A DNA stretch of 64,000 nt from a virus, in IMG/VR virus record IMGVR_UViG_3300045912_000789, positions 32,001 to 96,000 of that record. The stretch is one strand, 5' to 3'. The notes beneath the pieces are model-generated. The model made no database searches, was not told where the DNA came from, and saw only the letters and a program-made list of their open reading frames with translations. Position numbers and translations under genes: made by a program. Below are positions 1,240 to 63,965 of the stretch, piece by piece; positions within the stretch are counted from its first letter, which is position 1; every line of letters starts with the position of its first letter.

Positions 1240-1248
1240 GCTTATAGG
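1240..1248 (-). promoter_or_regulatory. Class B motif CCTATAAGC (putative phage early promoter)
   Basis: Motif recurs upstream of at least seven genes; here 14 nt before ATG 1225. Confidence 0.6.
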
Positions 1249-1259
1249 CCGAACCGCGC

Positions 1260-1265
1260 TACCGT
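1260..1265 (+). promoter_or_regulatory. Class A -10 box TACCGT, leaderless
   Basis: Exactly 6 nt before ATG 1272; no SD. Confidence 0.6.
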
Positions 1266-1271: not shown

Positions 1272-4200
1272 ATGGCTGTCGGTCAGCATCTTCGCCTCCG
1301 CCTCTTCATCGAGGGTGTGGAGGTTCCCGTGATCTCCGCGAACATCCAGTCCGCGAAGAACGCCCCGGTCGCGTGCAGCATCCAGATCCCCGCGAACGAC
1401 TACGCCCTCGACTTCCGGCCCCGATCGCTCATCCACCTCTTCATGTACGACATCTACAACGGCGCACCGCCCGAGGAGATGGTCTCGGTGGGCGGGCCCG
1501 GAGTTCGCGTGGTGGACCGGGACGACGGTGTCGACCCCGAGCTGGGGGGCTTGTTCCCGCCCGAGCGCTTCGAGTCGACCACCGAGCAAAATCTCACGGA
1601 CCTGGAGAACGAGAACTACAAGCTGATCTTCGGCGGCGAGGTGGTCGGCATCAACTACTCGAAGTCGCCCACCAGCCGATCGGTCGTGCTCCAGTGCATG
1701 GACTGGTCGAGCTACTGGGACATCGCGTACCAGTACATGGTCAGCGGGATGAGCCTGGGAGGCGGTGGCATCCGGGCGGCGTTCACCGGCGCAGCCACAA
1801 CCGTCTTCAACGACTTCCTCGAAGGATCGGGCGACATCGTCGTGCGTCTGATGGAGACGCCGCCCCGCTCGTACCCCAGCCTGCGTGGGACGCTGCTCGG
1901 AGCCATCACACACATCATCGAGGCGATCGGCGGAACGTACTTCGGCCGGCGCGCGGTGCGTGGAGTGAACGACTTCTTCAGCCTCGCCGAGATGAGGCTG
2001 CACCTGACCCAGATGCTTGGGGCGAACCCGTTCCCCGAGCGGGACGAAGTGCGCCTGATGCGCGCACGGGGTTTCGGCAGCCTGTTCCGCCGCAGCCTGG
2101 CGGGCCTGGGGCGCCTCGTCACGATCCGCCAGGTGCTGCTCGCGCTCCAGCGCTACATCTTTCACGAGATCGTTCCCATCAACGCACCGCGGTACATCCC
2201 GCCGCTCTACGATCCCGCCCTGCCGCGGTACGAGACGCTGGGGATCGAGGAGGACAAGGAGACCCGCCCGCTCGCGCGTGCCGCCCGGACCATCAAGGCG
2301 CGGGCCGAGGAGCTGAAGGAGCGCCAGGAGGCTTCGACAGACACCAGCGCCGCGAGACGTCAGAGCGACCGCCGGGGCGGGCTCCAGGCGGAGATGCGGC
2401 AGCTCAGCCGGACGTGCCAGCGGGCAGCCGCCGCGGCCCGGCGCGTGGGTCTCCAGGGGGGCACGTACACCCGGCTGTCGGACTTCTTCGGGATCCCCGA
2501 GGTCAGCCGGGCGTTCGTCGTCTCGGGCAACAACTTCAACCAGCTCCTCGATGCGACCCGCCGCGGGCAGCGCGCGGACGTGCGGACGTACACCTTCTAC
2601 CCGCCCGGCAGCGACAGCGCGAATACGGTGAACGGGCTGTGCGATCAGATCATCGCGCTGATGCAGCAGGTGATCGAGTCGCGGCACAACCGCCGCATCC
2701 AGCGCACGACGTCGCAGCCCGACCCTCCGCCCCGTCTGATCACCCAGATCTACAGGCCGGACGTCTGGATGGTGGCGCCGCCGCGCTGCAACGTCTTCTT
2801 CCCCGAGCTGTACAGCCAGTTCTCCTACGGCCGGAACTTCCAGCAGGAGGTCACCCGCCTTCTGCTGCGCACGCACAGCGCGTTCTTCGGATCGGACATC
2901 CTCTTCGACGGCTTCTACATGGCGCCGTCGCGCCTCCTCGGCTCGCGTACCGGTCGTCCCATCGGACGAGGCCGGATCGGGGCAGACCCGCCCGACCTCA
3001 GCGATGCGCCGGCGTGGGTCGTGCGGGACATGCTCGACCACGAGCTGTTCACCGGCATCATCCCGGCGTTCGAGCGCATGAGCGATCTGAACCTGCACGC
3101 GCTCCGTGGCGGGTACGCCATGATCAATGGTGTGCGGGTCGGGTACGCGCAGCTCGCGGCCAACCACATCTTCTTCCAGTACCGCTTCCGATCTCGCGAG
3201 CTGATGCTCCAGGGGAAGTTCAATCCCTACGCGGTGCTCGGCTTCCCCACGCTGGTGATCGACAAGTACCTGCCCACCGACCTACTCCGCGAGGGCACGT
3301 ACGATCCCATCCTCGCAGCACGTCTCGCCGAGGCCGTGCGGGAAGGTGAAGGCGAGATCGGTCCCCCGAGCGACGAGCGTACTCGCATCGCGGAGGCGAA
3401 CAACGCGCGCGTGGCCGAGGTGCAGGCGGAGCTGCTCGCCGGACGCCCGAACACCCACTACCTCGGTACCCCCGCCATGATCGTGCACAGCATCGACGCC
3501 AGCAGCGGCGGTTCGACGCAGGTGCAGATGGAGTACGCGCGCACGACGAACGAGCGCACCGAGTTCCTCGGCGACAACGTGGGGCGCAGCGGGCGCACGC
3601 GCCGCACGCGCAACATCCAGCGGACGACCGTCGTCGCGGCTCTGGAGGCCCCGACGGTGGGGTCGCTGGGCTACTACGGCGGCGAGATCCAGGAGGTCAC
3701 GGACGTCACGGACCAGTACGAGCGCCGCTCGCGGCGTCGTTCGACCGACCGCACCGGCAGCAGCACGCGCCACGCGTCGAGCAGCCTGCTCCCCCTCTTC
3801 GTCCCCGACCGCCGCTTCACCGGCCGCTCCCGGCGCGGCACGCGGGTTCCCGTGGGCGTCGAGCAGACCGCCGCGAGCTACGGGCCCGAGGTCGTGGCGC
3901 TCGTCGGCGCAGCCGGCACCTTCGACGCCTCGACGTCGACTGACCGCGAGATCCTGGTCACGTTCCGTGCGTTCCGCATCGTGGAGCAGATCGGAGCCTA
4001 CCGGACCGAGGACGTCGAGCTGCCGCCCGAGGACCTCACGTTCCCGCCGTGGTACGGCGAGCACTACCGGACGAACCGGATCGGCGGCCTCTACGCCTAC
4101 TACTTCGGCACCGGAGCGATCACGGACCCGCTCTTCGTCCTGGAGCCCGGCGCGGACCCCGCGCAGTTCGACGGCACGGCTGCCTCTGAGGCCGCCTCGG

Positions 4201-4838
4201 AGACGGATGCCGAGGGCAGGGCGCGCGCCGCGAGCATCGCCTTCATCAACACGTTCTCCGAGATCATCCGGGCCAGCATCGGGTCCCCCGACATGCCGCC
4301 GCAGCCTGGAGACACCGCCCCGCCCGAGCTGTCGGCAGGTGAGGAGCCCGGACCTCCGGGCGAGGTCGCGCCGGCGGAGGACACCGGCCTCATCGCTGCC
4401 GTGCGTGCCAGGAGCCCCATCGCCGAGGCCACCGAAGAGATCGTGCGCGCCTACAGCCAGGTGAAGACCCGGAACTTCGACGTCCACCAGTTCATCCGTG
4501 CGTACACCTGGCGGCCCATCGCCTCGATGGTCGACCTCTTCGGGACGGCCAACCTGGAGATCAACGACAGCGGCGAGGTCGTGCGGGGGCGCGAGGGCTT
4601 CCACAGCCGGGCCTTCGGCGACTACGACGACCTGCGGCAGCTCGTGAACACGAGCGACGGCAGCCGGCCGCAGACCATCCTCGGGCTCACCACGCGCGAT
4701 CCCGACGAGACGGGAGACGACAGCGACACCAGCCGGGACGCGAACATCGCAGCCCGCCTGGACACCCGCAAGGAGAAGCGGATCGCGGTCCTGAAGTACC
4801 TCTTCCAGCTCGGCGCTTCTTGCGGCGTCCTGGGCTGA
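1272..4838 (+). CDS. Large virion structural protein, probable baseplate hub (gp27/late control D-like)
   Basis: 1188 aa. N-terminus LRLFIEGVEVPV...LIFGGEVVG...VVLQCMDW resembles hub proteins; C-terminal GKFNPYAVLGFP motif; located in structural cluster. Confidence 0.6.
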   Translation: MAVGQHLRLRLFIEGVEVPVISANIQSAKNAPVACSIQIPANDYALDFRPRSLIHLFMYDIYNGAPPEEMVSVGGPGVRVVDRDDGVDPELGGLFPPERFESTTEQNLTDLENENYKLIFGGEVVGINYSKSPTSRSVVLQCMDWSSYWDIAYQYMVSGMSLGGGGIRAAFTGAATTVFNDFLEGSGDIVVRLMETPPRSYPSLRGTLLGAITHIIEAIGGTYFGRRAVRGVNDFFSLAEMRLHLTQMLGANPFPERDEVRLMRARGFGSLFRRSLAGLGRLVTIRQVLLALQRYIFHEIVPINAPRYIPPLYDPALPRYETLGIEEDKETRPLARAARTIKARAEELKERQEASTDTSAARRQSDRRGGLQAEMRQLSRTCQRAAAAARRVGLQGGTYTRLSDFFGIPEVSRAFVVSGNNFNQLLDATRRGQRADVRTYTFYPPGSDSANTVNGLCDQIIALMQQVIESRHNRRIQRTTSQPDPPPRLITQIYRPDVWMVAPPRCNVFFPELYSQFSYGRNFQQEVTRLLLRTHSAFFGSDILFDGFYMAPSRLLGSRTGRPIGRGRIGADPPDLSDAPAWVVRDMLDHELFTGIIPAFERMSDLNLHALRGGYAMINGVRVGYAQLAANHIFFQYRFRSRELMLQGKFNPYAVLGFPTLVIDKYLPTDLLREGTYDPILAARLAEAVREGEGEIGPPSDERTRIAEANNARVAEVQAELLAGRPNTHYLGTPAMIVHSIDASSGGSTQVQMEYARTTNERTEFLGDNVGRSGRTRRTRNIQRTTVVAALEAPTVGSLGYYGGEIQEVTDVTDQYERRSRRRSTDRTGSSTRHASSSLLPLFVPDRRFTGRSRRGTRVPVGVEQTAASYGPEVVALVGAAGTFDASTSTDREILVTFRAFRIVEQIGAYRTEDVELPPEDLTFPPWYGEHYRTNRIGGLYAYYFGTGAITDPLFVLEPGADPAQFDGTAASEAASETDAEGRARAASIAFINTFSEIIRASIGSPDMPPQPGDTAPPELSAGEEPGPPGEVAPAEDTGLIAAVRARSPIAEATEEIVRAYSQVKTRNFDVHQFIRAYTWRPIASMVDLFGTANLEINDSGEVVRGREGFHSRAFGDYDDLRQLVNTSDGSRPQTILGLTTRDPDETGDDSDTSRDANIAARLDTRKEKRIAVLKYLFQLGASCGVLG

Positions 4839-4849
4839 AGTCGTACAAT
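4820..4849 (+). promoter_or_regulatory. Class A promoter TTGCGG-N18-TACAAT, leaderless
   Basis: -10 box at 4844-4849 lies 6 nt before in-frame GTG 4856. Confidence 0.6.
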
Positions 4850-4855
4850 CCGGCC

Positions 4856-5419
4856 GTGTCCATCACCTCGACCAGCAAGACGCTCGCCCGGGGCCTGTCC
4901 AAGACACGGTCGGGCTCGCCGTCCATCGGCATCCAGAACCTGATCGAGGCCTCGAAGCGCAAGGGCTTCTCGGACCGGATCAAGAAGGCGGTGAGCGAGG
5001 ACGAGGCGCTCGACGCGGCCAAGATGCTGTCGACGAAGGGCCGAGCCCGGCGGTACGTGGAGGGCGGCATGATCGGCGGTGCGAGCTACCCGATCATCAG
5101 TGCCGCCGGCGAGGCCGCCAAGGGGCTCACGGCCCACAGCGGGTCGGGGAAGCTCCGGGCCGCCGGCGCAGCAGCGCGCGCGGTCCTGAAGGGGCCCGAG
5201 GTCGCGAAGAGCGTCACGCGGGGTGCGATGGGCGGCGGGGTGATCCAGGCGGTTCGGGAGGGCGTCGAGCTGGGCCGCGCGAAGAAGACCGTCCGCCAGT
5301 TCATCGACGAGCGTACGAAGGGCTCGGGGGTCGAGCCCGCACCGCAGAGCGCTGGCGTTCCTCGTCGACGCCCTCACGAGCCGTGGCGGTACGATCCGCG
5401 TCCGGCGGGAGAGTTCTGA
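4856..5419 (+). CDS. Gly/Ala/Lys-rich putative virion (internal head) protein (187 aa)
   Basis: Start moved to GTG 4856 on the leaderless motif; glycine-zipper-like helices. Confidence 0.6.
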   Translation: MSITSTSKTLARGLSKTRSGSPSIGIQNLIEASKRKGFSDRIKKAVSEDEALDAAKMLSTKGRARRYVEGGMIGGASYPIISAAGEAAKGLTAHSGSGKLRAAGAAARAVLKGPEVAKSVTRGAMGGGVIQAVREGVELGRAKKTVRQFIDERTKGSGVEPAPQSAGVPRRRPHEPWRYDPRPAGEF

Positions 5420-5919
5420 TGCCGTTCCAGTCGAAGAGGCAGTGGCGCGCCGCCTTCTCCGGCCGGATCCCCGGCTTCAGCAAGGAGAAGGCGCGGGAGT
5501 GGGCGCATGAGACGAAGGGTGAGTTCAAGCAGCTCCCCGATCGTGCGCCTGCCGAGAAGGGCAAGCCCACTCTGCGATCGAAGGAGGCGTCCGCGGCACC
5601 CAAGGCGGTGTACGTCGCGAAGAAGCTGCGCGAGCAGCTCATCAGCAGCGGCACCGGGAAGAACGTCTTCGATGCGATGCAGAGCGAGCGCGAGCGGTCG
5701 CGCCGCAAGCAGGCGTCCGACGAGTTCGTCGACTTCTGCGCGAAGATCGCCTTCGCCGTGCCGCGCCCGGGCCAGGTCTCGATGGCCTCCCGCCACGTCG
5801 GCAGCTTCAGCGGTCAGGCGACGACGAACTTCCTGAAGGCTCCCGGATCGACCACCGCAGCCGTCACCAACCCCCGTCTGAGCCTCCGCAACGCGATGAC
5901 GAAGACCATGCGGACCTGA
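5419..5919 (+). CDS. Hypothetical virion-associated protein (166 aa)
   Basis: TGATG coupling. N-terminus MPFQSKRQWR...AREWAHET resembles a small recurrent phage domain; contains K-x-A motifs. Confidence 0.65.
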   Translation: MPFQSKRQWRAAFSGRIPGFSKEKAREWAHETKGEFKQLPDRAPAEKGKPTLRSKEASAAPKAVYVAKKLREQLISSGTGKNVFDAMQSERERSRRKQASDEFVDFCAKIAFAVPRPGQVSMASRHVGSFSGQATTNFLKAPGSTTAAVTNPRLSLRNAMTKTMRT

Positions 5920-5937
5920 CCTATCAGCAGGTGGAGG
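5920..5937 (+). promoter_or_regulatory. Class B motif plus SD, CCTATCAGCAGGTGGAGG
   Basis: Identical 18-mer on the - strand at 46573..46590; directly upstream of the sigma gene. Confidence 0.7.
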
Positions 5938-5943
5938 CGCCGT

Positions 5944-6774
5944 ATGGCGAACAAGAAGGAAATCGAGAAGGTCGAGAAGTTCATCAAGGATGCCGCCACG
6001 AGCCCGGCGAAGGTCGAGCGTGCGACGCAGCGGTACGGTGAGCTGCGAGGTCGGCGTGGTCAGGAGCTTCAGCTCTGGCACTCCTGGGATCAGAGCGGGC
6101 GGAAGCAGGAGCACCTCGAACCGCTGCTGAAGTCGCTCGATCCGCTCATCCGTTCCGAGACCACGAAGCGCATGCAGGGCCTGGGCGGGTCGATCTCGTC
6201 GCCGGCCCTGAAGAACGAGCTGCGCCGCGCCGCGGTGCGGGCGCTGGAGACGTACGACCCGAAGAAGGGCACCCAGCTCACGACGCACGTCGTGAACAAC
6301 TTCATGCGGATCACGGACTTCGTCGCCGCCAACCGCAACCCGAAGTACATGCCGCGCGAGGACGTCGAGCGCTTCGGGGCGTTCCAGAACGCCAAGCAGG
6401 AGTTCGTCGAGGAGCACGGCCGGGAGCCCACGCACTTCGAGCTGAAGATGAAGCTCCCGACCTGGAGCGATCGTCAGATCAAGAAGATGACCAAGGGCTT
6501 CGGCAGCGAGGCCTTCACGGACATGGGCACCGAGCTGGAGCACGACGTTCAGCACGAGGACCCGATGCAGCGTGTGCGCGGTGCGCTTCACCTGATGCGG
6601 AGCACGCTGACGCCCGAGCAGCAGACGTTCGCCGACATGCACTACCCCGCCGAGGGCGAGCCGCAGAAGTCGGTGTCCGCCATCGCCAAGGCGATGAAGA
6701 TCCCGGAGCACAAGGCCTACCGGATCAAGAAGAAGGTCGAGGCGAAGCTCGCCCCGATCATCAAGGGGCAGTGA
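5944..6774 (+). CDS. Phage-encoded sigma70-family RNA polymerase sigma factor (FliA/SigB-like architecture)
   Basis: Region 2-like ALETYDPKKGTQLTTHV, region 3-like EEHGREPTHFEL, region 4 HTH LTPEQQ...SVSAIAKAMKIPEHKAYRIKKK. Confidence 0.85.
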   Translation: MANKKEIEKVEKFIKDAATSPAKVERATQRYGELRGRRGQELQLWHSWDQSGRKQEHLEPLLKSLDPLIRSETTKRMQGLGGSISSPALKNELRRAAVRALETYDPKKGTQLTTHVVNNFMRITDFVAANRNPKYMPREDVERFGAFQNAKQEFVEEHGREPTHFELKMKLPTWSDRQIKKMTKGFGSEAFTDMGTELEHDVQHEDPMQRVRGALHLMRSTLTPEQQTFADMHYPAEGEPQKSVSAIAKAMKIPEHKAYRIKKKVEAKLAPIIKGQ

Positions 6775-6995
6775 TGCGCGCCGGAACCGTCTCCAGCAGC
6801 GCTCTCTCGGCACGCACCCTGCGCGCGAGGGACTACGTCTTCTCGCCGCAGCGCGAAGCCGACCGGCTCATCGACGCCTGGCTGAAGGACAACCCCGGCT
6901 TCATGCACAAGAGCACCCCGGCGATGAAGGACCTCCGGGAGAAGCTCATCGCGAAGATCGAAGAGGCGATGGCCTCGAACGCAACGAAGGAGTGA
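6771..6995 (+). CDS. Hypothetical protein (about 74 aa)
   Basis: Overlaps the sigma stop codon; start GTG 6771 or ATG 6774. Confidence 0.6.
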   Translation: MMRAGTVSSSALSARTLRARDYVFSPQREADRLIDAWLKDNPGFMHKSTPAMKDLREKLIAKIEEAMASNATKE

Positions 6996-6998
6996 CCG

Positions 6999-7235
6999 GT
7001 GACCGCGCAGGCCGACCTCGAACGCCGCAACGCCCTCCTCGACGAGCTGAAGGAAGCCGTCGATGACTGGGCTGACGCGGAGGAGGAGAAGGTCAACAAG
7101 GAGATCGACTTCATGAAGTCGGTCCTGCGCGGTCGTACGGGATCGGAGCGGCTCGCTCGCAGCAACACGGAGGAAGCACGAGTGCTCGTCATCGACGACA
7201 TCGACAGCTTCCTGACCGGTGACGGGGCCACCTGA
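6999..7235 (+). CDS. Hypothetical acidic helical protein (78 aa)
   Basis: SD AAGGAG upstream; codon usage typical of the genome. Confidence 0.65.
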   Translation: MTAQADLERRNALLDELKEAVDDWADAEEEKVNKEIDFMKSVLRGRTGSERLARSNTEEARVLVIDDIDSFLTGDGAT

Positions 7236-7267
7236 TCCCGCTATTCTTTTGCTCCCAGGAGGACACC

Positions 7268-7969
7268 ATGCGCTACGACATCTCCGGCGTCATCGATCTC
7301 ACGACCCAGCAGACCATGCCCCCGGGTCGGCCCGAGAAGTACATGATGAGGGGGAAGCAGGTCGTGGTGCGTGATCCGACGAAGGTCACGGGGATCGTCG
7401 TCCACCAGACCGCCTGCGAGTTCGGTGTCTCGAAGCGGCAGATCGAGGAAGCCGGCGGCGACCCGGTGCTGGCGAAGCACCGCCGCGCGCTGAACATCGC
7501 GGCGCACGTCACCGCGTTCATGACCGGCAAGGCCGTCTACGCGAACCAGCTCCCGTGGTACGTCTACCACGGCAACGGCTTCAACGCGTACACCTACGGC
7601 CTGGAGATCGAGGGGCTCTACTGCGGACTGAAGGGGAACCTCCGCACGGCCGCAGGCGATCCCAAGGACGTCACGAAGCTGACGCGCGCGACGATCGACG
7701 CGGCACGCACCGGCATCACCTTCCTCTACGAGCGAGGGCGCATGCTGGGCTCCCCGCTGGAGTGGGTGTACGCCCACCGCCAGTCGTCCTCGACTCGTCG
7801 TAGCGATCCTGGTCAGGAGATCTGGGAGGAGGTCGTGCTGAAGTACGCGGTGCCCGTGCTGGGCCTGAAGGTCAACAACGATCTCGTCCTGCCGGCCTCG
7901 AACCCGAAGAACGGTCCGGGCTACCCGATCCCGCGCGAGTGGGATCCTTCGGCGACGGCGCGGTACTGA
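7268..7969 (+). CDS. N-acetylmuramoyl-L-alanine amidase (Amidase_2 family) endolysin
   Basis: IVVHQTA (Zn His), AHV, YHGNGFN...GLEIEG, AHRQS...DPG motifs; SD AGGAGG. Confidence 0.85.
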   Translation: MRYDISGVIDLTTQQTMPPGRPEKYMMRGKQVVVRDPTKVTGIVVHQTACEFGVSKRQIEEAGGDPVLAKHRRALNIAAHVTAFMTGKAVYANQLPWYVYHGNGFNAYTYGLEIEGLYCGLKGNLRTAAGDPKDVTKLTRATIDAARTGITFLYERGRMLGSPLEWVYAHRQSSSTRRSDPGQEIWEEVVLKYAVPVLGLKVNNDLVLPASNPKNGPGYPIPREWDPSATARY

Positions 7970-7971
7970 GG

Positions 7972-7977
7972 TAGACT
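7972..7977 (+). promoter_or_regulatory. Class A -10 box TAGACT, leaderless
   Basis: 6 nt before ATG 7984. Confidence 0.65.
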
Positions 7978-7983
7978 CCTCCC

Positions 7984-8946
7984 ATGCCCGTCGTCACGCA
8001 GCAGCCCGTGCAGCTCTCGTACTTCGTCGCCGACCCGGCGACGGAGCTGCTGACGTACAACCGGCTGCGCTTCTGGCGAAGCCGCACCGGACAGGACGGA
8101 CTCTACGAGCCGGCGACGGCCGCTGCGGCAGCACCGGCAGAGTTGGAGGGCACTTCCGAGACCCCGCACCAGCTCAACGGCAAGACCCTGAGCTTCCGGG
8201 TAAGCGGCGTGACCCAGGTCGACGTGCTCTTCGCGGATCCCGACCCGGTCACGACCACGCAGGTCGTGGCGGCCATCACCGGCGCGACGGCGCTGGTCGT
8301 GGCCACCGACGTGGGCGGGAAGCTGCACCTCGCGTCCGTGGCGACCGGCAGCGGCGCCAGCATCGAGATCCTGGAGTGCGACGCGGCCCCGTTCCTCGGC
8401 TTCGATGTGGGGCAGGCGGCTGTCGGGCTCGACGCCGACCTCGTGCTCACCGCCGGCGTCCACGAGTACCTCTACACCGATCAGAACAGCTCGGTGGACT
8501 TCTGGTACCGGGTCGAGCTGCTCCACAGCGTGACTGCGCAGACGAAGGGGGCCGGCCCGGCGTTCCAGGCAGGGCCGATCGGAACGCCCAACAGCACCAA
8601 GATCTGGTGCTACATCCGGCTGACCGATCTGGGAGGCCGCCCGCTGGCCGGGCGGATCGTGACTCTTCTGAACCCGTTCATCCCGAACACCGTGGTGTCG
8701 GGAGCGTCTCGGTGGGGGATCTTCCGCCACTACGCGCAGATGACCACCGACAGCGAGGGCTACGCTCAGATCCGAGCGCTGCGTGGGATGCAGGTCGACG
8801 TGGCGGTCGACGGCACGAACTTCATCCGACGCCTCGGCATCCCCACCACGGGCGACAGCGTCGACCTGCTCGACCCGTCGCTGGTGGTCGAGGACGAGTT
8901 CGGCATCCAGGAGCCGAACATCGACTTCGCGGTGAGGACGTCGTGA
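7984..8946 (+). CDS. Virion structural protein with C-terminal beta-sandwich (carboxypeptidase-regulatory-like) domain
   Basis: Beta-rich. GRPLAG...TTDSEGYAQIRALRG domain is also present in 10149..11063. Confidence 0.6.
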   Translation: MPVVTQQPVQLSYFVADPATELLTYNRLRFWRSRTGQDGLYEPATAAAAAPAELEGTSETPHQLNGKTLSFRVSGVTQVDVLFADPDPVTTTQVVAAITGATALVVATDVGGKLHLASVATGSGASIEILECDAAPFLGFDVGQAAVGLDADLVLTAGVHEYLYTDQNSSVDFWYRVELLHSVTAQTKGAGPAFQAGPIGTPNSTKIWCYIRLTDLGGRPLAGRIVTLLNPFIPNTVVSGASRWGIFRHYAQMTTDSEGYAQIRALRGMQVDVAVDGTNFIRRLGIPTTGDSVDLLDPSLVVEDEFGIQEPNIDFAVRTS

Positions 8947-9284
8947 GCCGCGGCAAGCTCGTGACGGTGGTCCTCCCGGCAGCGATGCACCACGCCGGAG
9001 TGCCGAAGGAAGTGAGAGAGATCGTGGAGCACCCCGAGAAGAAGCTGGTCGAGGTCGTCGAGAAGCGTGCAGCCGTCGACCGAGCCATGTTCAAGGGCTT
9101 CGTCGATCGCGTCATGAAGTCGATCGAAGACGACGAGCCGAGCGAGATGCATACCGCGCTCGGCCTACTTCGTCTCGACCGGACCGGTCCGGCGAAGGAG
9201 GACCGTCCTCCACGTGCGGCCTACGCCCGCCAGGAAGTCGGCAAGGGCCTCGTCGACAACGTGATCCAGAAGGCCGCGACCTGA
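8943..9284 (+). CDS. Hypothetical protein (113 aa) with K-x-A motifs
   Basis: GTGA coupling to the upstream stop; C-terminal part of track ORF 8376..9284. Confidence 0.6.
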   Translation: MSRGKLVTVVLPAAMHHAGVPKEVREIVEHPEKKLVEVVEKRAAVDRAMFKGFVDRVMKSIEDDEPSEMHTALGLLRLDRTGPAKEDRPPRAAYARQEVGKGLVDNVIQKAAT

Positions 9285-9302
9285 GCAAACGGATGTGGTG
9301 CA

Positions 9303-9318
9303 GGCCCCCGAGGGGGCC
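9303..9318. terminator. GC hairpin between convergent genes
   Basis: GGCCCCC-GA-GGGGGCC inverted repeat; no U tract. Confidence 0.35.
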
Positions 9319-9330
9319 CGCACCGCTCCG

Positions 9331-10059
9331 TCAGCCCTCGTCGCCGCCGCTCAGGATCCGACGCAGCTCGGGCGGCAGGTCGCCGCCGCCCAGCTCCATC
9401 ACCTGGATGTCGAGGCCCGGGATGCCGCTCCGACCACGCCCGCGGCGACCGCCGGGCGGCCCGCCGAGGAGCATCTCGAAGAGGGCGCCGAGGACCCCGC
9501 CGGCCGACGGCCCGCCGAGCCCCATCTCGTTGGCGAGGTCGAGCAGGTTGCGCGCGGTCTCCCGCACGCCCTGCTTGTCCTCCTCGGTCTCGTCCCGGTT
9601 GAGGCTCTTGGTGAGGAAGTGATCGGTCGCCGGCCCGGGCATCCGACCGCGGTACTCGGCCGAGCGGATCTTGTCGGCCGACTCGACGCTCGCGCAGAGC
9701 GCACACGAGCAGCCCGGCGTGAGCCGCTCGGTGTGCATCCGCTCGCGCTCGTCGCCGGCGGCGACGAAGGCGCGCACGAGCTTCTCGCGCTCCGGCTTCA
9801 TCAGCCGGACGAAGAAGCTCTTGATCGACTCGCCCTCCGCCGAGCGCGAGTCGATGCCGTGGATCATCAGCGCGACCTCGACCTTCGCCGAGAAGTCGTC
9901 GGTCTTCCGCGCGTCGCTGAGCGGCAGCATCACGAGCGTCTTCATGAAGTCGCCGAAGGTCGCGTACCGCAGCGCCTTGGCGGAGAGGGCCTCGTTGTCC
10001 GCGCGCAGCTTCTGGTTCTCCTCGCGAAGCCGCTGCATCTCGATGTTCGTCGTGTTCAT
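9331..10059 (-). CDS. Hypothetical protein (242 aa) with CxCxxC motif
   Basis: SD GAGGAG; class B motif upstream; inserted against the structural strand. Confidence 0.7.
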   Translation of the reverse strand: MNTTNIEMQRLREENQKLRADNEALSAKALRYATFGDFMKTLVMLPLSDARKTDDFSAKVEVALMIHGIDSRSAEGESIKSFFVRLMKPEREKLVRAFVAAGDERERMHTERLTPGCSCALCASVESADKIRSAEYRGRMPGPATDHFLTKSLNRDETEEDKQGVRETARNLLDLANEMGLGGPSAGGVLGALFEMLLGGPPGGRRGRGRSGIPGLDIQVMELGGGDLPPELRRILSGGDEG

Positions 10060-10105
10060 GTGGGTGCTCTCCTCGTGTGTTCGGTGGGCCGGAGCCCGTT
10101 CACTG

Positions 10106-10114
10106 GCTTATAGG
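10106..10114 (-). promoter_or_regulatory. Class B motif CCTATAAGC inside a 9-bp inverted repeat (10090-10098/10120-10128)
   Basis: Same 9-mer as at 1240..1248. Confidence 0.6.
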
Positions 10115-10136
10115 GGCACCGGGCTCCGATTTCGTG

Positions 10137-10142
10137 TAGGAT
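10137..10142 (+). promoter_or_regulatory. Class A -10 box TAGGAT, leaderless
   Basis: 6 nt before ATG 10149. Confidence 0.65.
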
Positions 10143-10148
10143 TCCGGC

Positions 10149-11460: not shown

Positions 11461-11461
11461 C

Positions 11462-14059: not shown

Positions 14060-14061
14060 GG

Positions 14062-14067: not shown

Positions 14068-14073
14068 TCGGGG

Positions 14074-14406: not shown

Positions 14407-14407
14407 C

Positions 14408-15055: not shown

Positions 15056-15061
15056 CCCCGC

Positions 15062-57698: not shown

Positions 57699-57728
57699 TT
57701 GACCCATATTCGAGGGCGCGGGTAGACT
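57699..57728 (+). promoter_or_regulatory. Class A promoter TTGACC-N18-TAGACT, leaderless, driving the RNAP gene
   Basis: Same geometry as 46596..46625; -10 box 6 nt before GTG 57735. Confidence 0.7.
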
Positions 57729-57734: not shown

Positions 57735-60700
57735 GTGCTGACATCGGACCCCCACCACCAGTTCGAGGAACTGAAGGATCAGCTCCTTCAGCAGATCGGC
57801 CAGACTTTCCCGGTGAAGGACCGGTCGGGTCGGTTCGAGGTGCGCGTGAGCGACCTCAAGATCGAGGATCGTCTCGGGGTCGACGACATCAAGGACCAGT
57901 TCAAGGCGAAGATGGAGGGCCGGTCGTGGGCCGCTCCCGTCGTCGGAACGATCGAGATCGTCGACACCACGTCGGGGAAGACGCTGGTCAGCAAGAAGAA
58001 CTCGCCGGTCGCCAAGATCCCGAAGCTGACGCGTCACTACAGCTACATCATCGGCGGGTCGGAGAAGTTCATCGCGAACCAGTGGCGCCTGCGTCCGGGC
58101 GTCTACGTGAAGGCGACCGAGAAGCCCGGCGAGTTCGAGGCGCAGTTCCAGCTCGCCAAGGGCCGCAGCTTCGATCTCCAGACCGGTGACAGTGGCGAGA
58201 TCTACATGAAGCTGGGGTCGCGGAAGATCCCGCTCTACAGCGTTCTGAACGCCATGGGCGTCGACGACGAGGCGATGAAGAAGGCGTGGGGTGCCGACGC
58301 CTACGAGGCATCGCGCAAGAAGGCCAACGTCGCGCGCGACCTCAAGTCGCTCTACGAGACCTGGCGCAAGGAACCGCTCGGGGAGAAGGCCGATCCGGTC
58401 CTGGAGACGAAGGCCATCTTCGAGGGCACCCGCATCGATCCGGTCGTGGCGCACGCCAACGTCGGTGTGAAGTCCGAGCGGGTCGACAGTAGCGTGCTCT
58501 TCGAGGCCTCGAAGAAGCTGCTGGACGTCGCCGCCAAGCGGAAGGATCCGGACCCCATCGACAGCCTCCGATACAAGGAGCTGTGGACCGCGAAGGACCA
58601 GTTCGTCGATCGGATCGCCAAGGCCGCACCCGACATCGAGTCTCGGATCCAGCGCGCGCTGGGGAAGCCCACGGTTCAGCGTCGTCTGGCGTCGGGCGAC
58701 CACAGCGTCCTGCGCGACGTGTTCATGCCCGACCTCATCCAGCGCCCGCTCTACCACGTCTTCACGACGTCCCTGGCGGCGAACGGGAAGCAGACGAACC
58801 CCGTCTCGATGCTCTCGGACCGGTCCATGGTGACGATCACGGGACCGGGCGGCATCCAGAACCCGCACGCGCTGTCGAAGAGCAACACGTCGCTCGACCC
58901 GTCGCACCTCGGCTTCCTCGACCCGGTGTTCACGCCCGAGTCGAACGCCGGCGTGAACACGCACCTCACCTTCGGTGTGTCGATCAAGGATCGGAAGCCG
59001 TACGTCCGGCTCTACAACACGAAGACCGGGAAGATGGAGGACGTCGACGCCGCGACCGCGGCAGTCTCGAACGTTGTCCTCCCCGACCAGGTGCGGTGGG
59101 AGAAGGGCACGCCGAAGCCCCTCAGCAAGACGGTCCGGATGTCGGACTCCCGCGGCCACATGCGCGACGACATCGCGTTCTCCTCGGCCGACTACGTGAT
59201 GCCGAGCGCGGCGCAGGTCTTCGCCGTCGAGACGAACCTCGTGCCGTTCATGCAGAACGACAGCGCCGGACGCTCGACGATGTCGGCTCGGCACATGGCC
59301 CAGGCCATCTCGGTGGTCGGCCGTGAGCCGCCCAAGGTGCAGGTCGAGGCCGGCGCCGGGAAGTCGTTCGAGGCGATCATGGGCTCCGGGTTCCTCGCGC
59401 ACCGCGCCAAGGCGGACGGTGTGGTGAAGGAGATCAAGAAGGACGAGATCGTCATCCAGGGCAAGGACGGGACGCATTCGGTTCACCTCTATCACCACTA
59501 CCCAACGAACGATCCGAAGGGCCAGCTTCACAGCTCGCCGCTGGTGAAGCCGGGGGACCGCGTCCGAGCCGGGCAGATCGTCGCGGACAACAACTACACG
59601 AAGAACGGCACGCTCGCGCTGGGCGCGAACCTGCGCGTGGCGTACCTGGCCAACGGCTCGAACCACGAGGACGGCATCGTCATCTCGCGAAGCGCCGCCG
59701 ACCGCTTGGCGTCCGAGCACCTCTACAAGCCCAGCATGCTCCTCTCCGACACCCACGTGCTCGGGAAGAAGGAGTTCCTGATCGGCAAGCCGGGGGTCTA
59801 CTCGAAGGATCGCATCGACAAGATCGGTGACGACGGCATCGTCAAGCCCGGTACGAAGGTGAAGCCGGGCGACCCGCTCGTGCTGGCGCTCGGCGAGGTC
59901 ATGCTGCCCGGGACCGCCGACATCAACGCGAAGTACAAGATCGGCAAGCGCCTCCGCAACAAGTACCAGAACAGCTCGATGGTCTGGGACGGCGACTACG
60001 AGGCCGAGGTCGTGCGTGCGGAGCGCGTCGGCAAGAACGTCGTCGTCCACCTCAAGACCCTGGAGCCGGCGCAGATCGGCTCGAAGATCTCCACGCGCCA
60101 CAGTGCGAAGGGCATCGTCACGGAGATCATCGACGACAAGGACATGCCCCACGACGAGAAGGGCAAGCCCGTGGAGATGCTGATCAACCCGGTCAGCGTG
60201 CCCGGACGCATGAACCCCGGCCAGCTCCTGGAGACGGCCGCGGGGAAGATCGCGGACAAGACGGGACGCCCGTACTTCGTCCGCAACTTCCAGGGAGGCA
60301 CCGACTACCTCAAGAAGATCCAGGACGAGCTGAAGCAGCACGGACTGAAGGACACCGAGACGCTCTACGACCCGAAGACGGGCCGGAAGCTCGGCGACGT
60401 GATGGTCGGTCCGCACTACGCCTTCCAGCTCGAACACCAGATCGACAAGAAGACGCACGTGCGCGCCGGCGGCTACGGCAGCGAGCTGCTCCAGTTCGAC
60501 GCGCCGAAGATCCACTACGACAACGACACGCGTGTCCCTCGCGGTGGCGGCCACACCGGCGCGCAGAGCCTCGGCAGCCTTGGCATCTACGCCGCGCTGG
60601 CCGCCGGCCTGAAGGACAACCTGCGCGAGATGCAGACGCTGAAGTCGGACCAGCCGCAGGCCCGTGAGGTCTGGGGCGCGCTGGCGAACGGTGAGCGCAT

Positions 60701-63700
60701 CCCGGCACCGAAGATCCCGTTCGTCTTCAAGAAGTTCGAGTCGATGCTCACGGGCCTCGGCGTGAACGTCGAGAAGTCGGGCGCTGAGATCCGCCTGATG
60801 CCGCGCAGCGACGCCGAGACGCGAGCCATGAGCCGTGGCGAGATCACGCGCCCCACCCGTAGCATCCGCGGCAAGGACGACAAGCCGGAGCAGGGCGGGC
60901 TCTTCGACCCGAACATCACCGGCGGTCCTGCGGGCCAGCACTGGGGCCACGTCGAGCTGGTCGAGCCGATGCCGAACCCGGTGTACGCCCGGGCCATCGC
61001 GCACACGCTCGGCATCAAGGAGACCGACATCCCCAAGATCATCGAGGGGAAGGCGAAGCTGCCGAACGGAGAGATCGGCGGCAAGGCGTTCCGCGACGCT
61101 CTGAAGTCGATCGACATCGACAAGGAGATGAAGGCGACGGCCGCGGCGCTGAAGGATCCCAAGGTGAAGGGCGCGCAGCTCGACAAGCTGCACTTCAAGT
61201 ACCGCGCGCTGAAGACCGTGAAGGACGCCGGCAAGCGGCTCGACGAGGCCTGGACCATCAAGGCCGTGCCGGTGCTGCCGCCCGTGTTCCGCCCGCAGGC
61301 CACGCTGCCGGACGGGACGATCAAGAACAACCCCCTCAACGCGCTCTACAAGCGTCTCGGCATGGTGAACGAGTCGCTCAAGAAGGGCGAGGGCAAGGTT
61401 CCCTACAACAACACGCTCGATGCGCGCGCCGGTCTCTACCAGGAGCTGTCGAACCTCTTCGGCACCACGCCGAAGGGGAAGAAGGCGCTCGACCTCGACA
61501 TGCGCGGCACGAAGGAAGATCCCGACAAGACGCTGCCCGGCATCATCCACATGATCTCGGGTGACCAGCCGAAGGACGGGTTCTTCCAGGACAAGATGAT
61601 CGCGAAGAAGCAGGACTACACGTCCCGTGCGACCATCGTCGTGGACCCGAACCTGTCGGTGGACGAGATTGGTCTGCCGAAGAAGATTGCCATCGAGCTG
61701 ATGCGCCCGATGGTGGCGCGCCGCCTCGTCCAGGCCCGCATCCGGCCGGACGAGGCGCAGAAGATGATCAGCCGCAAGGACCCCATCGCCATCAAGGCTC
61801 TGGAGCAGGAGGTCCAGCACCGTCCCGTCCTGATGAAGCGCGACCCCGTGCTGCACCAGTACGGTCTCGTCGCCCAGCGGGCGAAGCTCACCGACGACCC
61901 GGCGATCAAGGTGAGCCCGCTCATCCTGCCGCCGCTCGGCGGCGACATCGACGGCGACACCGTGGCGCTGATGGTCCCCCTCACCCAGGAGGCGATCGAA
62001 GAGGCGAAGCGCATCATGCCGTCGCAGCGCACGCTCAGCGACAGCTCGGGCGACGTGCTGTTCTCGCCGGCGAACGAGTCGGCCCTCAGCCTCTACCGCA
62101 TGTCGATCCCCCGCGGGAAGCACCAGGGGGCGCTGAAGGACAAGGACGAGGCGGAGGCGCTGTTCCGCTCGAACCGCATCCACCTCAACCAGCAGATCCA
62201 CGTGAAGGGCGTGGGCGACACCACGCTCGGACGGCTCCGCATCGCCGAAGTCCTGCCGGAGAAGTTCCGCCCCGACGTCCTCACCAAGCTCGACAAGCCG
62301 TTCGATCGCAAGGTCCAGGAAAGCATCCTGAAGGACGTCGCGAAGAACATGCCGAAGCACTTCGTCGAGACCGTCGACGGGATGAGCCGGCTGGGCTTCA
62401 AGATGGCCTACGAGTCGGGCCACACCGTCGGGCTGAAGGACATCGAGCCGCTGCGTGAGCACCGCGACAAGATCATCGCCGACGCCACCAAGGAGGTCGC
62501 GGCGATGAAGGCGCGCGGCGCGGACGCCGCAGAGACGACCGAGGCCTGGCTCCGGGCGACCCGGAAGATCCACGACGTCTACAACGACGTGCTCAAGGGC
62601 AAGCCCACGAACGTCTCGGACATGGCACCGGCGCCGCTGGGCTCCGGCATCAAGGCGAAGCGCGAGCAGTTCCAGGGGCTCATCATGGCCCCCATGCTGG
62701 TCGAGGATCACCTCGGCACCCCCTCGAAGGTGCCGATCACGAAGAGCTTCGCCGAGGGCATCGACCTCGGCGGCTACTTCCTCCAGGCCGCCGGCGCGCG
62801 TCGCGGCGTCATCCAGAAGACCGACTCGGTGCGCGAGCCCGGCTACATGAGCAAGCTGCTCGTGCAGGCGAACATCGACCAGCCGATCACCTCGGCCGAC
62901 TGCGGAACGACCCACGGGATGTCGATGCCGGTGACCCACAAGGACATCGTGGATCGGCACCTCGCCAGCGACGTGAAGATCGGCGACCACCTGTTCAAGG
63001 CCGGCACGGTCGTCACTCCAGACGTGCTGTCGAAGGCCAAGGAGAAGGGTGTCGATCAGCTCGTCGTCCACAGTCCGCTGAAGTGCCGGATGCCGCAGGG
63101 CGTCTGCTCGAAGTGCATGGGCGTGCACCCCAGCGGCAAGGAGTATCACCTCGGTGAGAACGTCGGCATCGTGGCGGCCCAGGCGCTCGGTGAGCGAGCG
63201 GCGCAGCTCATGCTGAAGCAAACGCACGGCGGCGGTATCGTGTCCACGGCCGGCCACAGCGTCTCGGAGTTCAGCGACGTGCAGCGTCTCTTCGACGCCG
63301 CGAAGCGGGGGCGCGAGGACGCAGCCCTGGCTCCCAACAACGGCAAGATCGTCGGTGTCCACCAGAGCAAGGCGGGCGACTGGGTCATCCAGTTCGAGCG
63401 CGGCAAGGTGAAGACCCGGCAGAAGCCGCTCCCGCACGTGAAGCCGGGCACCGAGGTGAAGCGCGGCGACACGCTCACCGCAGGCGACCCGAACATCCAC
63501 GATCTCCTGGCGACGAAGGGTCTCGACGCCGTCCAGGCTCACATGGTCGACAAGATCGGTACCATCTACGGCCGTGAGGGTGTGCTTCGTCGTCACGTCG
63601 AGCTGGCGGTTCGGAACGCCACGGGCGTCGTGCGGGTCACCGATCCCGGAGACCACGACGGCTACGTCCGTGGCGACTACGTCCAGAAGTCGGTGCTCGA

Positions 63701-63965
63701 CGAGATCAACCGCGGCGTCCTCAAGGGCAAGGAGGCGGTGAAGTACCAGCCGATGCTGCTGCCCACGAAGATGATCCCGCTGCGCCGGCAGGAGGACTGG
63801 ATCGCGCGCCTTCAGGGCGAGCGCATCGGCCAGAGCGTCCTGCGCGGCATCCAGCACGGCCACAAGTCGGACGTGACCGGACGACACCCCATCCCCGCTC
63901 TCGCCGTCGGTGTGACGGTCGGCGCGCCCGCCGACGCTCGCCCGTTCGGCACCGCTGCACGCTGA
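57735..63965 (+). CDS. rpoBC: Single-chain fused beta-beta' DNA-directed RNA polymerase (2076 aa)
   Basis: Beta motifs GPGGI, DPSHLGFLDPVFTPE, LVPFMQND, NHEDGIVIS, GSKISTRHSAKG, INPVSVPGRMNPGQ, LREMQTLKSD; then in frame beta' motifs PVLPPVFRP, KQDYTSRATI, KRDPVLH, catalytic DIDGD, bridge helix GARRG...GYMSKLLV, trigger loop AQALGE..QLMLKQTH. Confidence 0.95.
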   Translation: MLTSDPHHQFEELKDQLLQQIGQTFPVKDRSGRFEVRVSDLKIEDRLGVDDIKDQFKAKMEGRSWAAPVVGTIEIVDTTSGKTLVSKKNSPVAKIPKLTRHYSYIIGGSEKFIANQWRLRPGVYVKATEKPGEFEAQFQLAKGRSFDLQTGDSGEIYMKLGSRKIPLYSVLNAMGVDDEAMKKAWGADAYEASRKKANVARDLKSLYETWRKEPLGEKADPVLETKAIFEGTRIDPVVAHANVGVKSERVDSSVLFEASKKLLDVAAKRKDPDPIDSLRYKELWTAKDQFVDRIAKAAPDIESRIQRALGKPTVQRRLASGDHSVLRDVFMPDLIQRPLYHVFTTSLAANGKQTNPVSMLSDRSMVTITGPGGIQNPHALSKSNTSLDPSHLGFLDPVFTPESNAGVNTHLTFGVSIKDRKPYVRLYNTKTGKMEDVDAATAAVSNVVLPDQVRWEKGTPKPLSKTVRMSDSRGHMRDDIAFSSADYVMPSAAQVFAVETNLVPFMQNDSAGRSTMSARHMAQAISVVGREPPKVQVEAGAGKSFEAIMGSGFLAHRAKADGVVKEIKKDEIVIQGKDGTHSVHLYHHYPTNDPKGQLHSSPLVKPGDRVRAGQIVADNNYTKNGTLALGANLRVAYLANGSNHEDGIVISRSAADRLASEHLYKPSMLLSDTHVLGKKEFLIGKPGVYSKDRIDKIGDDGIVKPGTKVKPGDPLVLALGEVMLPGTADINAKYKIGKRLRNKYQNSSMVWDGDYEAEVVRAERVGKNVVVHLKTLEPAQIGSKISTRHSAKGIVTEIIDDKDMPHDEKGKPVEMLINPVSVPGRMNPGQLLETAAGKIADKTGRPYFVRNFQGGTDYLKKIQDELKQHGLKDTETLYDPKTGRKLGDVMVGPHYAFQLEHQIDKKTHVRAGGYGSELLQFDAPKIHYDNDTRVPRGGGHTGAQSLGSLGIYAALAAGLKDNLREMQTLKSDQPQAREVWGALANGERIPAPKIPFVFKKFESMLTGLGVNVEKSGAEIRLMPRSDAETRAMSRGEITRPTRSIRGKDDKPEQGGLFDPNITGGPAGQHWGHVELVEPMPNPVYARAIAHTLGIKETDIPKIIEGKAKLPNGEIGGKAFRDALKSIDIDKEMKATAAALKDPKVKGAQLDKLHFKYRALKTVKDAGKRLDEAWTIKAVPVLPPVFRPQATLPDGTIKNNPLNALYKRLGMVNESLKKGEGKVPYNNTLDARAGLYQELSNLFGTTPKGKKALDLDMRGTKEDPDKTLPGIIHMISGDQPKDGFFQDKMIAKKQDYTSRATIVVDPNLSVDEIGLPKKIAIELMRPMVARRLVQARIRPDEAQKMISRKDPIAIKALEQEVQHRPVLMKRDPVLHQYGLVAQRAKLTDDPAIKVSPLILPPLGGDIDGDTVALMVPLTQEAIEEAKRIMPSQRTLSDSSGDVLFSPANESALSLYRMSIPRGKHQGALKDKDEAEALFRSNRIHLNQQIHVKGVGDTTLGRLRIAEVLPEKFRPDVLTKLDKPFDRKVQESILKDVAKNMPKHFVETVDGMSRLGFKMAYESGHTVGLKDIEPLREHRDKIIADATKEVAAMKARGADAAETTEAWLRATRKIHDVYNDVLKGKPTNVSDMAPAPLGSGIKAKREQFQGLIMAPMLVEDHLGTPSKVPITKSFAEGIDLGGYFLQAAGARRGVIQKTDSVREPGYMSKLLVQANIDQPITSADCGTTHGMSMPVTHKDIVDRHLASDVKIGDHLFKAGTVVTPDVLSKAKEKGVDQLVVHSPLKCRMPQGVCSKCMGVHPSGKEYHLGENVGIVAAQALGERAAQLMLKQTHGGGIVSTAGHSVSEFSDVQRLFDAAKRGREDAALAPNNGKIVGVHQSKAGDWVIQFERGKVKTRQKPLPHVKPGTEVKRGDTLTAGDPNIHDLLATKGLDAVQAHMVDKIGTIYGREGVLRRHVELAVRNATGVVRVTDPGDHDGYVRGDYVQKSVLDEINRGVLKGKEAVKYQPMLLPTKMIPLRRQEDWIARLQGERIGQSVLRGIQHGHKSDVTGRHPIPALAVGVTVGAPADARPFGTAAR

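Follow-up and report, generated by a model that had tools for sequence, protein, structure and literature searches.

A fused RNA polymerase gene beside virion-type genes

The phage genome is 171,909 bp (~172 kb) long, high in GC and roughly 8% non-coding. We analysed a window of 64,000 nucleotides of it (positions 32,001 to 96,000 of IMG/VR record IMGVR_UViG_3300045912_000789), to which all coordinates below refer. Near the right end of the window, one frame with a GTG start (57735..63965, plus strand) encodes an RNA polymerase (RNAP) of 2076 aa. Its Pfam domains run from beta (Rpb2_2/3/6; Rpb2_6 with E 2e-55) to beta' (Rpb1_1/2/3/5), which bears out the original prediction of a single-chain beta-beta' enzyme. 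The catalytic loop, of the DxDxD type, reads GGDIDGD and is unchanged in five orthologues; RNAP orthologues in IMG/VR share 76-83% identity with the enzyme. We found no second RNAP in the 171,909-bp genome. Alpha (RNA_pol_A_bac) and omega (Rpb6/omega) subunits gave no match genome-wide, and host subunits could still serve.

The RNAP stop codon overlaps the ATG of a gene for a gp5/VgrG-like baseplate spike (63965..64000, plus strand, extending past the window end), so that the two are translationally coupled. The spike protein matches Phage_base_V and Gp5_C weakly in Pfam, and PF04717, PF06715 or PF22178 was found in many of its homologues. There are more than 400 of these, on contigs of up to 198 kb, and members of the clade occur widely in soil, sludge, mats and water. 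The operon comprises the genes for RNAP, spike and the terminase TerL. These neighbours, and a promoter class shared with virion-type genes (class A, below), support a late-type operon as the setting of the RNAP gene.

Three further blocks lie in the window. A virion-type block (1272..28343, plus strand), broken by two minus-strand genes (9331-10059 and 19084-19356), encodes an Amidase_2 protein (7268-7969), proteins with Ig-like and PKD domains, and homologues of the virion proteins gp8, gp12 and gp13 of Salmonella phage Arash; putative leaderless class A starts lie inside it at 1272, 4856, 7984, 10149, 14074 and 15062. The replication/recombination block (28396..46568, minus strand) encodes a DEAD helicase, UDG, DnaB, DnaG, PolA, a RecA-like protein, a PD-(D/E)XK protein and RusA, with candidate class B promoters at 46589, 38785, 33489 and 28821. 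A class A operon (46632..53143, plus strand) ends with the portal gene (51257-53143), which matches the Arash portal gp204 (tblastn, E 1e-68).

Two promoter classes

Class A consists of TANNNT, 6 nt and the start codon, with no Shine-Dalgarno sequence. TANNNT-N6-[AG]TG occurs 18 times genome-wide and ends exactly at a called gene start in 12 cases; with spacings of 3-5 or 7-11 nt, TANNNT gave 0-2 matches at gene starts. A Shine-Dalgarno sequence precedes 1 of 11 class A starts, compared with 127 of 201 other genes. Placed in this way, class A would start transcription on the start codon and yield leaderless mRNA. The genes behind it include the RNAP and homologues of Arash virion proteins, and its -10 is preserved at orthologous gene starts in relatives.

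The RNAP-operon promoter (57699..57728, plus strand) has a -35 TTGACC (57699-57704), an 18-nt spacer and a -10 TAGACT (57723-57728) that ends 6 nt before the GTG start. In a footprint of six genomes, both hexamers are invariant at this junction and the spacers vary. One more distant relative keeps the promoter, two others have TGnTACNCT-N5-ATG instead, and extended -10 elements (TGn) are found at class A in distant relatives. A canonical -35 (TTGACC, 18-nt spacer) occurs only at the RNAP promoter and at the portal-operon promoter at 46632; the remaining 9 of 11 class A promoters are -10-only. Thus, the suggestion that the RNAP gene shares the promoter of the structural genes was right for the leaderless -10; it was not right for the whole promoter, since the -35 sets the RNAP promoter apart from most of class A. 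Because these two promoters carry a canonical -35, class A looks like an ordinary bacterial primary-sigma promoter, and the RNAP gene carries the strongest host-like promoter of the genome. Here, 'host-like' denotes the generic bacterial consensus only. In high-GC bacteria, leaderless promoters of the primary sigma place TANNNT ~6-7 nt ahead of the start codon (Streptomyces-type consensus TTGACN/TAGRRT); the predicted architecture of class A is the same, likewise with no Shine-Dalgarno sequence. A hint of a host among the Proteobacteria, in which leaderless genes are uncommon, comes from the tmRNA tag and from the MAG labels that distant relatives carry.

Class B has the form cCTAT[ACG]AGc-N3-GTG, with an optional (T/C)CAAA at -20. 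CTAT[ACG]AG occurs in 35 copies in the genome; the ~30 intergenic ones face a gene, mostly 10-60 nt downstream. Their targets are accessory genes (small ORFs), replication/recombination genes and the tmRNA gene, and class B is preserved at orthologous units in relatives. Raw counts in the window are only ~2x chance, so the signal lies in placement and not in number. Motif discovery had originally been proposed as a check; in three genomes, the upstream hexamers with the highest enrichment stem from class B (12 observed, 0.3 expected). In many copies, GTG[A/G]AGG runs into the Shine-Dalgarno sequence, which lies 5-10 nt ahead of the start codon; other copies are at least 50 nt from the start and have a separate one. 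A terminator-like hairpin with T-tract adjoins 18 of 80 class B sites, compared with 8 of 900 positions chosen at random. Since the tmRNA gene lies behind one copy, the element would act at the level of transcription, and with the abutting hairpins we conclude that class B behaves as a promoter.

Some of the same observations bear on whether class B could instead be an RNA-level element beside the ribosome-binding site, active in processing or translation. The fusion of GTG[A/G]AGG with the Shine-Dalgarno sequence in many copies is what such an element would predict. We regard this as highly improbable, given the tmRNA gene behind one copy, the copies at least 50 nt from the start, those directly after terminators, and the divergent junctions headed by class B, where a promoter must exist.

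There are four such junctions in the window, and reading the sequence at each confirmed the predicted back-to-back arrangement. At 1241..1265, class B CTATAAG (1241-1247, minus strand) faces away from the -10 TACCGT (1260-1265) of the ATG at 1272. At 10107..10142, CTATAAG (10107-10113, minus strand) is paired with TAGGAT (10137-10142) before the ATG at 10149, and both elements are preserved in the genome G002. The junction at 46583..46625 combines CTATCAG (46583-46589, minus strand), at the head of the replication/recombination block, with a -35 TTGACC (46596-46601) and a -10 TACGCT (46620-46625) before the ATG at 46632. At the RNAP junction, CTATCAG (57675-57681, minus strand) lies back-to-back with the class A promoter described above and heads a unit from ATG 57657 of small ORFs, an AAA_5 ATPase and DUF2201/VWA; on the plus strand, it reads CTGATAG and is invariant in every relative aligned, distant ones included. 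The division into virion-type genes (class A) and replication/accessory genes (class B) had been foreseen as well, and relatives keep both classes.

A divergent sigma factor

Within the virion-type block, the gene at 5944..6774 (plus strand) encodes the sole sigma-70-family factor of the genome (276 aa), a divergent one. A family profile searched against PDB matched RpoD/SigA (E 3.8e-13), with positions 96-266 aligned to sigma70 413-599, so that the homology spans regions 2 to 4, and all 60 matches listed were sigma factors. NCBIfam gave weak colinear matches. Pfam Sigma70_r2/r4 had no match at E<=1 in six frames and nothing on the protein itself; Sigma70_r3 appeared faintly in some homologues. 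An AF2 model (pLDDT 80.5) retrieved sigma chains as all of the top 50 Foldseek matches in PDB (E about 2e-6), at a TM of only 0.23-0.33 because the domain arrangement differs. By profile homology and predicted fold, we consider membership of the sigma-70 family genuine.

A phmmer alignment, approximate because of its low identity, places H/N/N at sigma70 Y430/W433/W434 and E/H/Y at R584/E585/R588. On this approximate mapping, the phage sigma appears to have lost the canonical residues that read the -10 and -35. In a complex model, sigma 82-98 is placed on RNAP 1202-1237, the clamp helices (ipSAE 0.81; best control 0.00), with contacts that agree by at least 71% between runs and a partner pLDDT of at least 74. 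Among solved complexes, 58 of 80 attain this mark, and among mismatched pairs 2 of 110. We read the model as a likeness only, since sigma on the clamp helices is a textbook pairing that the prediction may reproduce from solved structures.

The only plus-strand class B motif in the window (CTATCAG, 5921..5927) precedes the sigma gene, and CCTATCAGCAGGTGGAGG is located 23 nt upstream of the start codon. Of five lineages, two have a class B site before sigma, and the genome G001 belongs to one of these. In the other three it is missing, and the sigma gene abuts the upstream virion gene and continues the virion operon. The claim that the sigma gene carries class B along with the replication and accessory genes thus holds here and does not extend to these three lineages.

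Relation to phage Arash

The phage records matched by the sigma are only Arash (OQ632216) and Vibrio phages D69, D181 and D148, which are also those with the strongest RNAP matches. They are likewise of myovirus type, about 180 kb long, and encode a beta/beta' RNAP of the bacterial type as well as an orthologous sigma (Gp10 in Arash) embedded in the virion-gene block. Portal, TerL and several virion proteins are homologous to those of the present phage; its class A-driven virion block and TerL match Arash gp6, gp8, gp12, gp13, portal and TerL. Identity is only 28-32%, and for Arash 29% in RNAP and 32% in sigma. The Arash RNAP consists of two genes adjoining the portal gene, whereas here it is one fused chain; the second Arash sigma (gp196) has no counterpart in the present genome; and the Arash genome, at 53% GC, is without the CTATNAG motif, unlike that of the present phage.

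In mass spectrometry of Arash virion preparations, RNAP and sigma were abundant: the RNAP protein Gp206 gave the highest count (3516 spectra), with 1210 for Gp216 and 467 for sigma Gp10, and the RNAP counts per residue were comparable with those of major structural proteins (PMC10585845). The preparation was purified by sucrose gradient only and contained 116 proteins including RNR, ligase and primase, and the authors allow carry-over (PMC10585845). Published work on Arash does not include an analysis of its promoters or transcription. From these preparations, packaging of the RNAP in the virion is plausible for the present phage. The combination had been put forward as undescribed. This is right in part only, since the Arash paper of 2023 had reported both RNAP and sigma from virion preparations (PMC10585845).

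Which polymerase reads which class

The A/B split fits a virion-carried polymerase. Class B would be a phage-specific promoter heading about 30 units, read most likely by the fused RNAP with the divergent sigma as its specificity subunit. Class A would drive the virion-type genes and the RNAP operon with RNAP, spike and TerL, and its reader is most likely the host RNAP holoenzyme; the sigma gene would also be transcribed by read-through inside the virion block.

Phage N4 uses a virion RNAP for early genes and host sigma-70 RNAP for late genes. The logic proposed here is alike, with the polymerase gene among late/virion genes, phage-specific early promoters and host-like late ones. The N4 enzyme, however, is single-subunit and T7-like and reads hairpin promoters, whereas here a fused multisubunit-type enzyme with a sigma-70-family factor would be packaged; N4 also has a second phage RNAP for middle genes, and the present phage has one RNAP. 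The RNAPs of phiKZ and AR9 are related to beta/beta' and lack alpha and omega, as here, and one set is packaged for early transcription. They comprise 4-5 polypeptides in two paralogous sets, in contrast to one fused chain, and in phiKZ/AR9 no protein is recognisable as a member of the sigma-70 family (gp68 and gp226 being no more than structural or functional analogues), where the present phage has a true homologue.

We favour, at a confidence somewhat short of even, a programme like that of N4, in which an RNAP-sigma holoenzyme, probably delivered by the virion, would read class B and host RNAP would take class A late. Judging from the Arash homology, packaging and injection of the holoenzyme are probable, which would make class B early or middle. 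That the sigma serves these early-type promoters rather than late ones is the more likely assignment. More tentative is the full scheme, in which the injected enzyme with its re-tooled sigma fires about 30 phage promoters, host polymerase is left with the leaderless consensus promoters, from which it makes the virion and a new generation of RNAP, and the overlapping A/B pairs form a competition switch. Several observations count against the holoenzyme model. A -35-like CAAA occurs in only 10 of 80 class B sites. If sigma is the class B factor, the extra class B site before its own gene, in the present genome and in G001, is not needed. Arash is distant and without CTATNAG, and its virion preparation is open to carry-over.

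The strong host-like promoter of the RNAP gene would fit early synthesis by host RNAP equally well. In a forward cascade of the T7 type, host RNAP would read class A on entry and make RNAP and, by read-through, sigma, which would then turn on class B as middle genes, with the RNAP no functional part of the virion. The start would require no phage factor, the RNAP promoter has the best primary-sigma consensus and does not vary among relatives, a class B site ahead of sigma would supply positive feedback, and the Arash spectra could be carry-over. But virion genes would then come first, as the RNAP is coupled to the spike in an operon with TerL and the portal operon has the same promoter type; class B units resemble early cassettes, in that small ORFs come with a promoter and a terminator apiece; and the spectra per residue of the Arash RNAP are comparable in number with those of major structural proteins. 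We hold this cascade to be unlikely, if a serious contender.

Less probable again is the original prediction, in which the packaged beta-beta' enzyme reads class B without sigma and an early, class B-made sigma takes host or phage core to class A. The class B site before sigma in the present genome and G001 suits it, 9 of 11 class A promoters are -10-only and T4-late-like, and T4 gp55 and SPO1 gp33/34 are well-known examples of phage sigmas that activate late genes. The idea of an early sigma driving leaderless late genes is not borne out, in that class A has a canonical -35 or an extended -10 and the sigma appears to lack the matching contact residues. The three lineages without class B before sigma, where the gene abuts a virion gene, and the presence of the Arash orthologue itself in virion preparations speak against it too, and a bacterial-type core without sigma would require another specificity factor for class B. 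The phage RNAP might also serve both classes, with its own sigma at one and, at the other, either the host primary sigma or a phage factor that went unrecognised, so that host RNAP is dispensable. Phages of the phiKZ type do without host RNAP altogether, and the clamp-helix region resembles the bacterial one closely enough for modelling with sigma region 2. We think this slightly less probable still: there is one RNAP with one detectable sigma, a second factor was not found in the genome, and there is no sign of host-RNAP shut-off.

Virion RNAPs with mapped promoters have so far been either T7-like (N4) or of the fragmented multisubunit type. In the present clade, a single fused core of the bacterial type appears to be joined by a true sigma of altered specificity and a compact promoter of 16 bp. 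The predictions can be tested directly, since phage Arash on Salmonella is a relative in culture. If the holoenzyme model is true, this would be the first sigma-dependent virion RNAP, and a packaged sigma-RNAP would mark out a large clade of environmental phages. Should the pairing hold, it would provide a natural orthogonal set of sigma, core and promoter, a test case for the rewiring of sigma specificity, and a third way of starting infection without the host polymerase.

Two promoter classes in back-to-back arrangement

The original prediction described four back-to-back junctions between class A promoters (a TANNNT −10 element and 6 nt, followed directly by the start codon) and class B promoters (a CTAT[ACG]AG-type motif). 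All four were confirmed by reading the sequence, and further junctions of this kind occur elsewhere in the genome. At genome positions 30125–30142 (L002), a minus-strand class B motif, CTATCAG, and a plus-strand class A −10 element, TAGGCT, share bases (CTGATAGGCT), and this overlap is kept in the genome of a relative, G001.

Genome-wide, TANNNT-N6-[AG]TG was present in 18 copies, 12 of which ended on a called gene start. When spacings of 3 to 11 were compared, 6 alone placed TANNNT on gene starts. Class A starts in the window are located at 1272, 4856, 7984, 10149, 14074, 15062, 46632 and 57735. We predict that class A gene starts are leaderless because a Shine–Dalgarno sequence was found at 1/11 of them versus 127/201 other genes. 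At orthologous starts in two relatives (60–63 % GC) the −10 element was retained and the flanks had diverged. TTGACC at an 18-nt spacer was detected only at two class A promoters, those of the RNAP operon and of the operon whose last gene encodes the portal (chance of a match, ~0.001 per site). At the RNAP junction, GCGTTGACCC and GTAGACT were invariant in six genomes, with variable spacers between them; a more distant relative retained TTGACC/TAAGCT-N6-GTG, and two other relatives carried GTGATACNCT-N5-ATG, an extended −10. TANNNT combined with a −35 element or an extended −10 is a hallmark of ordinary primary-sigma promoters, and the RNAP promoter appears to be the strongest host-type promoter.

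The class B motif CTAT[ACG]AG occurred in 35 copies, about 30 of them within the non-coding ~8 % of the genome. Intergenic copies point at a gene, mostly 10–60 nt away. Motif counts were barely above chance compared with shuffles, so the argument rests on placement and conservation. In an unbiased list of upstream enrichment, class B-related hexamers ranked top in 3/3 genomes. The logo from 80 intergenic sites was cCTAT[C/A/G]AGca.GTG[A/G][A/G]G, with G at position +12 in 75/80 sites; CAAA at −20 was sharply positioned and present in only 10/80. By a fold-based count, a hairpin plus T-tract directly preceded 18/80 class B sites versus 8/900 random positions; this count was used as a simple scan on L007 overlooked hairpins visible by eye. 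Some copies lie at least 50 nt from the start codon, and class B is therefore predicted to be a promoter and not a translation signal. It may resemble sigma-28 promoters (TAAA-N15-GCCGATAA).

A class B motif was also found 42 nt upstream of a one-piece tmRNA gene (L005:16619–17027, genome 147719–148127; Rfam, 119.9 bits), with a hairpin between them. Its tag ANDNSYAPAALAA was searched as a degenerate pattern, and none of the bacterial genomes in the collection encoded it. The labels of MAGs with distant homologues (Gammaproteobacteria, Rhizobacter) hint only weakly at the host.

The RNAP gene and its operon

Window 57735–63965 (+) forms a single reading frame of 2076 aa, in which Pfam places beta domains ahead of beta′ domains. 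No other RNAP is encoded in the genome, and neither alpha nor omega subunits were detectable there. On inspection of residues about 1040–1090 and 1399–1409, the catalytic loop reads GGDIDGD, not NADFDGD, and by eye the N-terminal zinc-binding cysteines of beta′ are apparently missing (consensus LFDP.ITGG..GQHWGHIELVEP).

The start of a 374-aa gene overlaps the RNAP stop codon. This gene and many homologues match Phage_base_V, Gp5_C and Gp5_trimer_C, which mark the baseplate spike, and we assign it as the spike gene from these matches. Three more genes on the same strand follow, then TerL, with the genes for the major capsid protein and the sheath found beyond it in the downstream direction. 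Divergent from RNAP, window 54619–57032 (−) encodes a paired MoxR-like AAA_5 ATPase and DUF2201 metallopeptidase/VWA-like protein, a pair kept in distant relatives (L044–L046). The synteny AAA/DUF2201, RNAP, spike, three genes, TerL and then an opposite-strand topoisomerase is conserved. The clade is large (68 sigma and >434 spike homologues; L008–L017, L040–L046; proteins P0002–P0189), with contigs of 150–198 kb from many habitats.

The sigma factor

The product of window 5944–6774 (+) had no match in Pfam. A profile of 30 homologues matched RpoD/SigA (E 3.8e-13) across regions 2–4, and a structure search with the AF2 model (pLDDT 80.5) retrieved sigma chains only. A search of the genome for a second sigma found none, the A2 HMM matching this gene alone. 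In the best alignment, which has low identity, sigma70 residues Y430/W433/W434 are replaced by H/N/N and R584/E585/R588 by E/H/Y. Given these replacements, the phage sigma probably does not recognise TANNNT or TTGACC, which makes it a natural candidate factor for class B, a non-canonical promoter.

A complex model placed sigma residues 82–98 on the predicted clamp helices of RNAP (1202–1237), with an ipSAE of 0.81 versus 0.00 for the best control, agreement between runs for 71 % or more of the contacts and a partner pLDDT of 74 or higher; because this is a textbook pair, the model shows likeness, not binding. The mark it reached was attained by 58/80 solved complexes and 2/110 mismatched pairs.

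A class B site precedes the sigma gene in this phage and in G001. Lineages in which sigma is 86 %, 84 % and 74 % identical lack the site, and their sigma gene directly adjoins the virion gene before it. The early-made sigma of the original prediction is therefore not a feature of the clade; what the clade conserves is the placement of the sigma gene within a virion operon.

Genome and gene content

The phage record (171,909 bp, 66 % GC) was complete by CheckV, and about 215 genes were called with a codon-usage model. The window spans bases 32001–96000 of this IMG/VR record. Near-identical DNA was detected in hot-spring and microbial-mat metagenomes by a search of sequencing runs; soil, sludge, biofilm and water runs gave partial word matches, which may come from relatives. 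None of the listed runs with window 52001–62000 was recorded as RNA. Only contigs, mostly of relatives, came from X1 and from X20, which is probably DNA despite its RNA-Seq label; they carry no signal of transcript starts or levels.

Most large plus-strand proteins had no match in PHROGs and Pfam. A replication/recombination block at window 28396–46568 (−) encodes RusA, a PD-(D/E)XK nuclease, a RecA-like protein, PolA, DnaG, DnaB, UDG and a DEAD helicase. The small gene at 28396–28791 (−) is preceded by a class B promoter of its own (CTATGAG, 28815–28821); its 131-aa product had no Pfam match at E≤0.001. Three unusually long stretches without a called gene (about 400–940 bp) stand out in an otherwise 94 % coding genome: L001:3757–4337, L006:3911–4851 (genome 151510–152450) and L007:400–815 (genome 166199–166614). 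Rfam gave no match in any of the three. A divergent intergenic region of 208 bp (L005; genome 137050–137257) is unusually AT-rich with repeated TAGTTAGTA words and matched neither promoter class; it may serve as an origin or in some other regulatory role.

Comparison with phage Arash

The closest cultured relative is Salmonella phage Arash (PMC10585845). Its RNAP is split into two ORFs, Gp206 and Gp216, and two ORFs are also found in one distant relative (L046). Its Gp10 is the orthologue of the sigma described here and likewise sits in a block of virion genes. The Arash virion proteins gp6, gp8, gp12, gp13 and portal are matched by class A-driven virion-block genes, and gp1 by TerL of the RNAP operon; gp196, a second sigma, has no homologue in this genome. 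In the phage collection, sigma matched only four records, Arash and three Vibrio phages, which were also those with the strongest RNAP matches. CTATNAG in Arash occurs inside genes only, which marks it as a clade-specific motif.

In sucrose-gradient virions of Arash, Gp206 was the most-detected protein (3516 spectra), with 1210 spectra for Gp216 and 467 for Gp10 at 100 % coverage (PMC10585845). As 116 proteins were listed and the authors allowed for carry-over, these data are only suggestive of packaging.

Discussion

The promoter architecture of the original prediction stood, and its interpretation was supported in part. There, a packaged RNAP read class B and the early-made sigma then switched on the leaderless class A genes. 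This role of the sigma as late switch is the reading least consistent with our data. We propose instead that class B is read by a phage holoenzyme, probably virion-borne, and that class A would be read by the host RNAP, yielding virion proteins and RNAP, with sigma supplied by host read-through from class A. This logic is N4-like. At the junctions, the A and B promoters overlap each other's upstream regions, and occupancy may therefore, speculatively, be mutually exclusive.

A T7-like order, in which host RNAP would first produce RNAP and sigma and class B would be transcribed next, remains an alternative because the RNAP promoter is apparently the strongest host-type promoter.

Our literature searches turned up no study of transcription in Arash-like phages, and phage RNAPs of this type are missing from reviews up to 2026. 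The N4-like arrangement proposed here would be a new form of virion-RNAP strategy, one that the Arash study (PMC10585845) foreshadowed in part, and this two-promoter RNAP/sigma phage system is worth following up experimentally.
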